The translations under genes and the position numbers were made by a program. 64,000 bases of DNA from the NCBI GenBank assembly GCA_048937405.1, contig JBHLNF010000003.1, forward strand, positions 1 to 64,000, in the 5' to 3' direction. Each line of letters opens with the position of its first letter. The stretch's first letter is position 1. This DNA comes from Promethearchaeota archaeon. Lineage in GTDB: Archaea > Asgardarchaeota > Lokiarchaeia > Sigyniarchaeales > SOKP01. Positions 263 to 52,394 of the stretch are shown here, piece after piece. The notes under the pieces were generated by a model that searched no databases, was not told the DNA's origin, and saw only the letters and a program-made list of their open reading frames with translations.

Positions 263-2578
263 ATGGTAAATCAAGATGAAAATGTAGAGGAAGAAGGAAT
301 TAAAATAATAAGAACTAGTTCTGCCTTTGATTGTGGAGGTCGATGCCCTTTAAAATTCCATGTTAAAGATGGAAAAGTGATACGAGTAGAGGGCGATGAT
401 TTTCCAGATCCAGACAAACAACTTAGAACATGTTTAAGATGTAGATCAATTAGACAGTATATCTATCATCCAGAGAGATTAAGATATCCATTAAAAAGAG
501 CTGGTCCTAAAGGTTCTGGGAAATTTGAAAAGATTTCATGGGATGAAGCTTATGACATTATCGCAGAAAAACTAAAAGAAACAATAGAAAAGTATGGAAA
601 TCAAAGTATATTATTTATTACTGGAGGAGGTTATCTTGCTGCATTACATAGTCCCGGAGCAGCTTATGCTAGATTACTTAACGCATTAGGTGGATATTCA
701 TCATCTTATGGTAATATTTCTTCCCAAGGAGCAATTTTTGGAACTCAAGCATCATATGGCTTTGGACAGATCTTTGTTGGTAACAGCCGGGAGGATTGGA
801 TGAATACAAAATTAATTATATGCTGGGGTTGGGATCCTGCACGTCAGATTTCAGGAACAAATACATTGTGGTGGTTAATTAAAGCAAGAGAAAATGGTGC
901 AAAAGTGATTGTAATTGATCCACGCTATACGGATACTGCTTTGGTAGTTGCTGATCAATGGATCCCAATAATTCCCGGAACAGATACAGCTATGATGGCT
1001 GCTGTAGCTTATGTAATTCTTAGAGAAAATCTGCAAGATCAAGAATTTCTCGACAAATATACTCATGGTTTTGATAAATATAAAGCATATGTAATGGGTG
1101 ATGAGGATGGAATTCCTAAAACACCAGAATGGGCTGAAAAGATATGTGGAGTGAAAGCATCTGTTATAGAAGATTTAGCGATTGAATATGCTACAACCAA
1201 GCCTGCTGCCTTAGAGGATTGCCAAGGTCCTGCTCGGTCAGCTATGGGAGGGCAATATAATCGAGGTGCTATAACGCTCTCTGCAATGACGGGAAATATT
1301 GGAAAACATGGTGGTAGTGCCTGTGGTGGACTTCATGGGATTCCGTATGGTCATATGTTTAGAGGAATTAGGATTCCTTCTGGTACAAACAAAGCTTATC
1401 CAAAAGGTAAGTCTTTAAAGGGTAATATTAATCCAAGAGATCGTTTAGATACTAGAATGCATGTAAATAAAATCTTTGATGCAATTCTAAAGGGAAAATC
1501 TGGAGGTTATCCTTCGGATATAAAGTTTGCCTGGTTCTGTGTATGCGATTTCCTAAATCAGATAGGAAATACTAACAAATCAGCAAAAGCTATGAGCCGA
1601 GAAGATTTGTTTACAGTAGTTCCAGAACTATGGTTAACACCCACAGCTCAATATGCTGACATTGTCCTCCCTGTAACTGGATTTCCTGAAAGGAGCGACA
1701 TTTCAAGACCATGGCCTTCAGGACCTTATTTTGGTCACATGAATAAAGCAATCGAGTCTATAGGTGAATGCAAGGATGATATACAAATAGCTGAAGAATT
1801 AGCTGAAAGATTAGGGATTAAAAATTTCAAAAGAGAAAAAGTTCTTAATCAATTTCTAGAAAATCCTCAATTAGCTCCAGCAAAACCTCTTATAGATAAA
1901 TACGATGGTATTAATGATAAATGGCTTCGTTTATTCACTGTTATGGCTCAAGATTTACGAACAAATATAAAAGATTATGATAAGTATAAAAAAGAAGGGA
2001 TCCATAGAATTGAACTTAAAGAACCTTATGTGGCATTCAAAAAGAATATAGATGATTTGGAAAACAATCCTTTCCCAACACCTTCGGGGAAGATTGAAAT
2101 ATATTCTGATCAGATTGCGAGTTGGAATAGACCTCTATGTCCTCCAATTGCTAAATATATACCAACCTGGGAAAATCGTGATGATCCATTAGCAGAAAAA
2201 TATCCCCTTCAATTAATCTCACCTCATCCAAGGCAACGGGTGCATTCAGAATTATATAAGATTAAATGGCTAATGGAAGCAATTCCACACAGAATGTGGA
2301 TAAATCCAGTTGATGCTGAGCCTCGAGGTGTTAGAAATGGTGATATGTGTTTAGTCTTTAATGATAGAGGAACTGTAGCGATTGAAGCTTTTGTAACGAA
2401 ACGAATTATACCGGGAGTCGTATGCATTTATGAAGGTGCATGGTATAATCCAGACGAGAACGGAATTGACAGGGGTGCTTGTGCTAATACTCTAACTAAG
2501 GATGCCATGGCTGAAGGAGGTGCTGCTGCATTAAAGACTTGTTTAGTTCAAGTTAAATTGGAAAAAGGAGTTGATTGA
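263..2578 (+). CDS. Molybdopterin oxidoreductase catalytic subunit, DMSO reductase family (DmsA-like), no Tat signal
   Basis: DCGGRC..CLR Fe-S region, YHPERLRYPLKR, ISWDEA, IDPRYTDT, PGTDTA, TAQYADIVLP, TPSGKIEIYS and a C-terminal molydopterin-binding domain (INPVDAEPRGVRNGD..NDRG). No twin-arginine leader. Confidence 0.9.
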   Translation: MVNQDENVEEEGIKIIRTSSAFDCGGRCPLKFHVKDGKVIRVEGDDFPDPDKQLRTCLRCRSIRQYIYHPERLRYPLKRAGPKGSGKFEKISWDEAYDIIAEKLKETIEKYGNQSILFITGGGYLAALHSPGAAYARLLNALGGYSSSYGNISSQGAIFGTQASYGFGQIFVGNSREDWMNTKLIICWGWDPARQISGTNTLWWLIKARENGAKVIVIDPRYTDTALVVADQWIPIIPGTDTAMMAAVAYVILRENLQDQEFLDKYTHGFDKYKAYVMGDEDGIPKTPEWAEKICGVKASVIEDLAIEYATTKPAALEDCQGPARSAMGGQYNRGAITLSAMTGNIGKHGGSACGGLHGIPYGHMFRGIRIPSGTNKAYPKGKSLKGNINPRDRLDTRMHVNKIFDAILKGKSGGYPSDIKFAWFCVCDFLNQIGNTNKSAKAMSREDLFTVVPELWLTPTAQYADIVLPVTGFPERSDISRPWPSGPYFGHMNKAIESIGECKDDIQIAEELAERLGIKNFKREKVLNQFLENPQLAPAKPLIDKYDGINDKWLRLFTVMAQDLRTNIKDYDKYKKEGIHRIELKEPYVAFKKNIDDLENNPFPTPSGKIEIYSDQIASWNRPLCPPIAKYIPTWENRDDPLAEKYPLQLISPHPRQRVHSELYKIKWLMEAIPHRMWINPVDAEPRGVRNGDMCLVFNDRGTVAIEAFVTKRIIPGVVCIYEGAWYNPDENGIDRGACANTLTKDAMAEGGAAALKTCLVQVKLEKGVD

Positions 2579-50808: not shown

Positions 50809-51627
50809 TTATTGCGGTTGTAATATCCCTGAAAACGCTAACCATGCTAGCAATGATTTTGCTACTAGGCTTAAGACTATATAAATACGTTCACCGAAAA
50901 GATAATCCTTCCACTTGCCTATTCCTTTATATTGAAGTATTTGGTTAATGGCAAAACTATTAAACAATATCAGATAAGTATAAAATATCCAATATACAAA
51001 ATCAGGTATACCTTCCGCATCCACACCATAAAAGTAGCCTAAAATCACGATCCAAGGAATAGCGCCAGATATACATCCCAAAATGAAAGGCATCCAATTA
51101 GTTTTTTCAGTATATTGATTAACAAGCTCCATCATATATCCAAACATTATCATCATAGCATTCAATACAAAAATCATAAGCAGTGACCAGAACTCCCAAA
51201 CTCCAAAAAGCAACGATAGAAAAACAATCATAATTGAACTAGAAAAAGCATATTCGTACCAACGATATGGATTAAAACCCTTTTTCAAATTGTTATTATA
51301 CTTTTCATTCAAGGGATAAGCAATTAAGAAATGAGCTAAGGCAGATATTAATAAGAATGAAGCCAAAACTGCTCCAAAATATGAAACAGTAAATAATACC
51401 TGAGGATCTGGGTATATATTAAAAGAATCTGGTGGAACAATCTCATAAGTTAAATAAAAAGTATAAATATCTCTAGAGAAATCTAAAATAAGTCCTACAG
51501 TGAGCATTAGTATTCCTTGTATTAGGTGAAGGATTCCCATATTTCTGTTAAACTTTTGCAAATAATCGAAGGATATATTAGAATTAGCTATAATTTCTTG
51601 TCGTTCTTTAAAATTCATTTTAACCAT
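50809..51627 (-). CDS. Heliorhodopsin
   Basis: N..MGILHLIQG, SALAH, NPYRWYEYAFSSSIM, GERIYIVLSLVAKSLLAW with the retinal-binding Lys; 7 TM. Confidence 0.95.
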   Translation of the reverse strand: MVKMNFKERQEIIANSNISFDYLQKFNRNMGILHLIQGILMLTVGLILDFSRDIYTFYLTYEIVPPDSFNIYPDPQVLFTVSYFGAVLASFLLISALAHFLIAYPLNEKYNNNLKKGFNPYRWYEYAFSSSIMIVFLSLLFGVWEFWSLLMIFVLNAMMIMFGYMMELVNQYTEKTNWMPFILGCISGAIPWIVILGYFYGVDAEGIPDFVYWIFYTYLILFNSFAINQILQYKGIGKWKDYLFGERIYIVLSLVAKSLLAWLAFSGILQPQ

Positions 51628-51841: not shown

Positions 51842-51920
51842 TATATTGATATGGAAAAGTGTGGCTAACTTTAAAGAATAAAATCTCATTTTTTATTATT
51901 TTATTCTCACCAAATCATTA

Positions 51921-52394
51921 TTAATTGTTAATTTTTTTAAGAATTTTTAAAATTTCATCGTTTTCCGGGATATCATGCATATTTTTTCCATAATATGCAT
52001 ATTGAATAATCCCTTTCTTGTCAATTATTAATAGTCCAGGCATTCGACCCAATTTAATCCACCTTTTTTCTTGTTTTAACATCGTAGAAACTTTCTTTGA
52101 CTCATCATAAAAAATAGCATATTTTCGCGCATATTTCTGTTCCATTTTTTTTGCATTTTTTTCATTATCTACCAAGATTGGATATAAGAAAGTATCTAAA
52201 TTTTCAAATTTATCAATATCTCTTCTTAATCTAGCAGCATGCCATCGACAAAATGGTCAATTGATATCTCTAAATAACACAATCACAACGTTTTTTTTAT
52301 TTTCAAAATCTCTAATATTTAATGTTTCACCTCTAGAATTTGGCAGACTAAATTCATCGATTCTAGTACCAACTAAATTGAATTTATCTTTCAA
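51921..52394 (-). CDS. AhpC/TSA (peroxiredoxin-like) protein with in-frame TGA in a UxxC motif: probable selenoprotein (157 aa, U46)
   Basis: Manual translation from TTG 52394: MKDKFNLVGTRIDEFSLPNSRGETLNIRDFENKKNVVIVLFRDIN-TGA(52257..52259)-PFCRWHAARLRRD..., continuing in frame into the listed 84-aa ORF (..MPGLLIIDKKGIIQYAYYG..DIP). Confidence 0.85.

Follow-up and report, generated by a model that had tools for sequence, protein, structure and literature searches.

Prx-like thiol:disulfide oxidoreductases (PrxL) are an established group of selenoproteins in Asgard archaea (Mariotti et al. 2016, PMC4989117; Huang et al. 2024, PMC11227280): they have the AhpC/TSA fold, and selenocysteine (Sec) stands for the first Cys in a U-x-x-C box. 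As defined by Mariotti et al. (2016), a Prx-like protein combines a peroxiredoxin fold with a thioredoxin-type C/UxxC box and has no Cys outside this redox box. The RNA signal known from Lokiarchaeota, the lokiSECIS, is described in the same paper by strict rules: the nucleotides before the stem are always AUGA, those after the stem are GA or AA, and the apical loop, of some 11 nt, starts with A's and ends in G, usually in AG. In later work, the search pattern of Huang et al. (2024) demands GA..[G/A]A, Sun (2021) used a eukaryotic SECIS tool, and a review of 2026 repeats the two-helix SECIS models. A full-text search for 'SECIS' together with 'three-way junction' returned nothing relevant, and we found no description of a kink-turn-less junction in the text of the Asgard selenoprotein papers.

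The gene considered here lies in a 64-kb stretch of DNA (hereafter, the window). It is a real Sec-containing PrxL gene of a Loki-type Asgard archaeon and belongs to the published family, nothing essential in the protein being different. Its frame opens with a TTG at 52392-52394 and contains one in-frame TGA only, in the context ..VVIVLFRDIN-U-PFCRWHAA.., and the Pfam domain AhpC-TSA (PF00578) covers residues 8-132, on both sides of the TGA, with an E-value of 2.6e-19. A first-pass annotation, made from the sequence alone, had described a frame of 157 codons with a single TGA and AhpC/TSA-like sequence on either side of it, truncated by the ORF caller; re-reading of the (-) strand and the Pfam match bear out this description. 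The plain ORF list, indeed, breaks the gene into pieces of 45 and 84 aa, and the public protein sets contain many C-terminal fragments of its homologues, 88-106 aa in length, so that the truncation by ORF callers is real. The designation of the gene as a hidden selenoprotein holds for automatic annotation but not for the literature, where the subfamily already figures among the Prx-like selenoproteins of Lokiarchaeia. Specifically, supplement file 79 of Huang et al. (2024, PMC11227280) lists near-identical entries from Lokiarchaeia (..VLFRDINXPFCRWHAARLRRD.., with X at the Sec site), and the protein is, therefore, already known. Within the family, this gene represents the 'MKDKF...UP[FY]C' subfamily, as opposed to the FFRGNWUSHC and UxxU genes that were named PrxL.1 and PrxL.2 in 2016; a PrxL of the FFRGNWUSHC type is also encoded in this genome (contig C7, stop at about 839650) with a canonical lokiSECIS behind it. 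Downstream of the PrxL gene of the window, its neighbour on this strand encodes a heliorhodopsin (50809-51627 (-); Pfam PF18761, 313.7 bits) and starts approximately 220 nt past the 3' element of PrxL. The coordinates of the gene and of the parts of this element are collected in Table 1.

Table 1. The PrxL gene and the RNA element that follows it; positions refer to the window.
Feature	Position	Strand	Remarks
PrxL (Prx-like thiol:disulfide oxidoreductase) selenoprotein gene	51921..52394	(-)	157 codons + TAA, TTG start
UGA codon 46, almost certainly Sec, first position of the U-P-F-C redox box	52257..52259	(-)	TGA in 50/50 aligned homologues
Cys49 codon TGT	52248..52250	(-)	aligned (to 3drn) with the peroxidatic Cys position of BCP-type peroxiredoxins
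73-nt three-way-junction RNA, putative SECIS variant without GA quartet	51846..51918	(-)	3' UTR; covariance model R1
P1 5' arm GAUUUGG	51910..51916	(-)	pairs with 51848-51854
P1 3' arm CCAUAUC	51848..51854	(-)	consensus CCAAAUC; one U-U mismatch in this genome
P2 5' arm GAGAAUAAAAU (11 nt)	51898..51908	(-)	pairs with 51874-51884
P2 apical loop AAUAAAAAAUGAG	51885..51897	(-)	13 nt, A-rich, ends in AG like lokiSECIS loops
P2 3' arm AUUUUAUUCUU	51874..51884	(-)	RNAalifold and covariation
P3 hairpin AAGU-UAGCCAC-ACUU	51857..51871	(-)	51868-51871 pairs with 51857-51860, loop UAGCCAC

The AF2 model of the protein (pLDDT 94.9) places U46 between a strand (residues 35-41) and a helix (residues 47-58). 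In a Foldseek search, the top matches of this model were peroxiredoxins of the BCP group, with Bcp1 of Sulfolobus (3drn, TM 0.83) as the best match in the PDB and a range of TM 0.83-0.86 for Bcp1/Bcp4. When aligned to 3drn, the protein has U46 at the Thr of TxxC, C49 at the peroxidatic position and R117, which is invariant across the PrxL family, at the catalytic Arg. It has the same overall fold as the BCP/PrxQ-type peroxiredoxins and keeps the conserved Arg as well as a Cys at the peroxidatic position, C49 being its sole Cys. The canonical Prx motif PxxxT/SxxC, however, is absent: Sec occupies the place of Thr and Arg that of Pro, so that the site is a thioredoxin-type UxxC box and not a Prx active site.

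The machinery for Sec decoding, for which the first-pass annotation proposed to look, is complete in this genome. SelD is present (185 bits) and itself contains one in-frame TGA, SepSecS scores 474 bits, the PSTK homologue has TIGR03574 as its best match (E 4e-45), and EFSec is represented by an EF-Tu-like factor with the archaeal SelB domain III (Pfam aSelB_III). The tRNA-Sec gene (C7:230424-230580 (+) = L009:1266-1422) lies immediately upstream of SepSecS, at a distance of about 6 kb from EFSec. Its acceptor stem measures 9 bp and its anticodon stem 6 bp, with the UCA anticodon in a CUUCAAA loop; the variable arm is long, the discriminator is G, and CCA is encoded in the gene. Two introns interrupt it, one in the D region and one in the T loop, as compared to the single intron, in the T loop, of the Loki tRNA-Sec that Mariotti et al. 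(2016, PMC4989117) found some 6 kb from EFSec. With the introns in place, the gene was missed by the whole-genome Rfam search at gathering thresholds, by ARAGORN with and without its intron mode and by two custom scans; it was found only via the EFSec/SepSecS neighbourhood, owing to the synteny published in 2016. When introns of 28-41 nt in the D region and 24-33 nt in the T loop were removed in silico, ARAGORN recognized tRNA-SeC(tca) with 1149 combinations of boundaries and any other tRNA with none. In the whole genome (4.47 Mb, 100% complete), ARAGORN reports 7 tRNA genes only, and about 17 in intron mode; probably, most tRNA genes of this organism are interrupted at unusual positions, and tRNA counts obtained with the standard tool are, accordingly, unreliable for this genome.

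How UGA 46 is read can be judged from its distribution among the homologues. A six-frame search detected PrxL homologues, of 38-89% identity, in 87 of the 150 genomes of the same order; nearly all full-length matches have exactly one in-frame TGA, with two in a few forms of the UxxU type. In a phylum sample of 301 genomes that was searched in the same way, four more families show the same TGA pattern, which spans at least six GTDB families. Among the 50 homologues that were read as DNA, the TGA column is kept throughout, with neither TGG nor TGT nor TGC in any of them, and the codons flanking the TGA vary synonymously (Pro CCT/CCA/CCC, Cys TGT/TGC, Arg CGA/CGG/CGT/AGA), as expected of a translated region. 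The alignment of Cys with TGA that the first-pass annotation suggested as a check is provided by one homologue with Cys at the Sec site (P0078, 48% identity) and by haloarchaeal entries with Cys in the supplement of Huang et al. (2024, PMC11227280).

The same annotation held that Trp in homologues, or a sequencing error, would argue against Sec. Trp is, in fact, found at the Sec site in 64 full-length database homologues, which might be taken to mean that UGA stands for one of the standard amino acids (Trp, Cys or Gly), whether by a genome-wide or local change of the code or by near-cognate read-through. This Trp, however, is an artefact of gene calling, and a trap for Cys/Sec alignment tests: three of the entries agree in every letter with the table-4 translation of a locus that has TGA in its DNA, some run past a true TGA stop into the 3' element or SECIS as W-F-G (WFG...), and the entries in the public metagenome sets (P0002-P0066 and others, dozens altogether) result from short AT-rich contigs having been translated with table 4. 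In the genome under study, TGA is an ordinary stop that terminates 266 of the 1822 open frames of at least 300 codons, and the only in-frame TGAs encountered were those of selenoprotein-type genes with SECIS elements behind them. Given, in addition, the complete Sec machinery and the total lack of Trp and Cys codons at the site in the 50 DNA sequences, decoding of this UGA as a standard amino acid seems very improbable. The notion that the TGA is a true stop, in a pseudogene, a split gene or a misread sequence, agrees with the two pieces that default ORF calling yields, but has next to no probability, because well over 100 assemblies, independent of one another, share this in-frame TGA, and on either side of it the amino acids are conserved, the codons vary synonymously and frameshifts are absent; this recurrence contradicts a sequencing error as well. 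Hence UGA 46 is almost certainly read as Sec, as had been surmised from the sequence alone, with the TGA column, the Cys forms, the Sec machinery and the non-canonical 3' signal described below all lending support.

The 3' flanks of the PrxL orthologues have a block in common, which begins at a distance of 0-36 nt from the stop and extends over about 75 nt, the conservation breaking off at the 3' end of P1. RNAalifold folds this block into a three-way junction, which, in the gene considered here, begins 3 nt after the TAA. In the MAFFT alignment of 34 sequences from close relatives, 96.1% of the cells are paired and 13 of the 22 pairs show compensatory changes; the observed value was reached in none of 500 shuffles, and sliding the partners by 1-3 columns brought the paired fraction down to 35-57%. 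Upon inclusion of Sifarchaeia, Jordarchaeia and other lineages in an alignment fitted to the covariance model, the paired fraction is 95.6%, with compensatory changes in 19 of the 22 pairs (again 0/500 shuffles; 31-54% with slid partners); this cross-class alignment leans towards the structure, having been fitted to it, and the MAFFT alignment and RNAalifold agree with it. In the model-fitted alignment, 99% of the cells of the 7-bp P1 are paired and 5 of its 7 pairs have compensatory changes; in P2, all 11 pairs are compensatory across the Asgard classes; and in P3, pair 71-83 flips between GC (21) and CG (10). The P3 loop (U)UAGCCA is kept in most of the Asgard lineages sampled and is replaced by UGCCCA in one family of the order (f2). 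Distant homologues, both AT-rich and GC-rich, fold independently into the same junction, with a P1 of CCUGGCC/GGCCAGG in the GC-rich case. A pseudoknot between the purines of J1/2 and the P3 loop (GUGG/CCAC) showed no covariation when the orthologue 3' flanks were inspected by eye.

The first-pass annotation had failed to detect an AUGA/GA SECIS by eye in the 3' region and considered that the recoding signal could be non-canonical. Both points are borne out. When the whole genome was scanned for the lokiSECIS as published (AUGA, a stem of 9 bp, an A-rich loop of 11 nt with G at its end, GA), none was found behind this PrxL, the matches on contig C13, to which the window belongs, all lying beyond position 70,000, i.e. 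outside the window, and no Rfam family matched in the window; behind the gene there is, instead, the three-way junction without the GA quartet. Canonical lokiSECIS elements were found behind the FFRGNWUSHC-type PrxL, three VhuD-like genes, HdrA, SelD (type II) and a few small genes. Most of those in this genome consist of an enclosing lower stem, a stem of 9 bp that is flanked by AUGA and GA and carries a loop of 11 nt, and a short hairpin on the 3' side, the apical loop of canonical lokiSECIS being taken as 11-13 nt. The stem, loop and position of the junction correspond to this type, with a 9-bp core extended by 2 pairs, the 13-nt loop AAUAAAAAAUGAG and a place next to the stop. The flanks of the upper stem do not: directly 5' of it stands GUGA instead of AUGA, with the family positions N-[A/G]-[G/A/C/U] pairing with the 3' strand, and directly 3' of it stands UU instead of GA or AA. 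Relatives read GUGG, GUAA, GAGG, GAAC etc. in place of GUGA, and the GUGA before the stem in this genome is a coincidence. In the model-fitted alignment, pair 14-63 is GU in 12 sequences, GC in 10, UA in 6, AU in 2 and CG in 1, and pair 12-65 is AU in 12, GC in 5, GU in 5 and UA in 2. Thus, covarying A-U, G-U or G-C pairs replace the sheared G-A pairs, and the junction is devoid of a kink-turn. We also considered, and rejected, a k-junction (kink-turn in a three-way junction) and a shifted core with AUGA overlapping the stop region, since the U of this AUGA varies (A/G/C/U), the GA forms Watson-Crick pairs with the UC of P1 and there is no GA before the 3' arm of P1.

The junction is tied to Sec-encoding PrxL genes without exception. 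In its own genome of 4.47 Mb, covariance model R1 has one strong match (86.6 bits, E 1.8e-15), the runner-up scoring 23.8 bits. Across the 150 genomes of the order, R1 gives 78 matches in 73 genomes, and row-by-row pairing of these with the six-frame matches to TGA-containing PrxL placed all 78 directly 3' of such a match, on the same contig and strand and starting within about 36 nt of its end. Only two genomes of the family have a PrxL gene but no R1 match, and in these the gene runs off the contig end. The sole negative control comes from a tandem pair (locus L072; G370:C126:5300-7200), in which the Sec-encoding PrxL has the junction and the non-Sec paralogue is without it. This paralogue (919-1392 (+)) has no in-frame stop and carries Asp at the Sec site (..GLM-D-LFC..), which is an unusual substitution in a redox box.

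The frame, the conserved TGA, the Sec machinery, the RNA structure with its covariation and the exclusive tie to the Sec-PrxL genes are direct observations. That the junction serves the insertion of Sec is suggested by association, namely, by its exclusive linkage to TGA-containing PrxL genes, and against such a role count the absence of the GA quartet, which every published model of an Asgard or eukaryotic SECIS demands, and the one U-U mismatch in P1. It could be argued that the selenoprotein is real but that the junction is some other 3'-UTR element, such as an mRNA stabiliser, a terminator-associated structure or a site for a regulatory protein or ligand, with Sec being inserted through a weak eSECIS-like hairpin further downstream or through an unrecognised signal. 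Besides the missing quartet, the supply of alternative hairpins would favour this interpretation: the pattern of Huang et al. (NNGAN-stem-loop-stem-N[GA]ANN; re-implemented without indels) has 30 matches in the 630 nt downstream of PrxL. So many matches, however, mean that the loose pattern cannot discriminate behind this gene; their number is at the chance level of AT-rich sequence, and they lie beyond the conserved block. The junction, on the other hand, abuts the stop as lokiSECIS do, has in common with them the stem length, the loop composition and the third arm, and is strictly linked to Sec-encoding PrxL, missing behind the one non-Sec paralogue. A SECIS of the bacterial type within the PrxL coding sequence was ruled out, because the synonymous sites after the UGA vary freely. 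On balance, a function of the junction other than that of a SECIS seems unlikely, and the junction is probably the SECIS of this PrxL gene, as far as comparative data can tell. The best explanation as a whole, to which we assign a probability of about 0.75, is that this PrxL is a selenoprotein with Sec at UGA 46 and that the junction is most likely its cis signal.

Under this explanation, Sec-tRNA(Sec) would be made by SerRS, PSTK and SepSecS, with selenophosphate supplied by SelD, and archaeal EFSec, possibly recruited by the junction RNA, would deliver it to UGA 46, where Sec would be incorporated. The cis signal would comprise the whole 73-nt junction, that is, the 7-bp P1, the 11-bp P2 with its A-rich loop ending in AG, and P3 with the UAGCCA loop. 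In the finished protein, the redox pair U46-x-x-C49 presumably cycles via a selenenylsulfide.

Further candidate selenoprotein genes were noticed in the same genome. One of them (C7:546839-547303 (+) = L082:140-604) encodes a protein of 154 aa with two adjacent in-frame TGAs (..AVHAD-U-U-ADV..) and has a canonical lokiSECIS behind it; Pfam gave no match for the protein, its homologues with 2-3 TGAs are present in 45 of the 50 genomes of the family, and the seven Asgard selenoprotein families listed by Huang et al. (2024, PMC11227280) do not include it. Another (C7:578511-578762 (+) = L083:162-413) encodes a CMD/AhpD-like protein of 83 aa (Pfam PF02627, 25.3 bits) with C-Q-P-U for CxxC and is followed by a lokiSECIS with a 13-nt loop, which makes it a candidate for a further Asgard selenoprotein family. 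A third (C19:94854-95099 (+) = L084:105-350) encodes a predicted membrane protein of 81 aa with the motif G-G-U-G-C, again with a canonical lokiSECIS behind it; Pfam gave no match, and the 49 other genomes of the family contain no homologue. Either this selenoprotein gene arose very recently, or the frame exists by chance and the SECIS downstream of it acts for something else.

As to the wider meaning of these data, the gene itself only confirms the published picture, in which Asgard selenoproteins still come out of automatic annotation truncated or, through table 4, mistranslated. Of greater importance is the RNA: it is a deeply conserved, covarying element that, by all comparative signs, appears to fulfil the same purpose as lokiSECIS without the kink-turn core. 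We tentatively propose, at somewhat less than even odds, that the GA/GA kink-turn is not required for SECIS function in Asgard archaea and that a whole PrxL subfamily, distributed over Lokiarchaeia, Sifarchaeia, Jordarchaeia and other lineages, relies on a junction that lacks it. If this is the case, the determinants of recognition would be the geometry of the junction, the A-rich apical loop and the third arm, all of which are also found in canonical lokiSECIS, and both the reading of the archaea-to-eukaryote SECIS transition and the type of SECIS-binding factor to be sought would change. Elements with and without the kink-turn in one genome amount to a natural series of 'mutants', offering a handle on what the Asgard Sec machinery recognises, and pattern searches built on the GA quartet miss or mis-assign the probable signal of this PrxL subfamily.

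Compared with the described SECIS types, the junction would share its purpose with the bacterial SECIS, which lies in the coding region, whereas no conserved hairpin follows the UGA in the PrxL coding sequence. The euryarchaeal SECIS likewise has this purpose and, in addition, the location in the 3' UTR, but its GAA_A bulge and G/C-rich upper stem are missing in the junction. The lokiSECIS (type I eSECIS-like) differs in having the conserved AUGA, the GA/AA and the 5' internal loop, none of which is present in the junction, and the junction, in turn, has a strongly conserved P3 loop of its own, UAGCCA. In the stop-abutting position, the length of the stem, the A-rich loop ending in AG and the third arm, the junction and the lokiSECIS match, and the similarity extends to the loop sequence itself: AAUAAAAAAUGAG of the junction is very similar to AAAAAAAUGAG in the lokiSECIS behind the VhuD-like gene at C13:236030.
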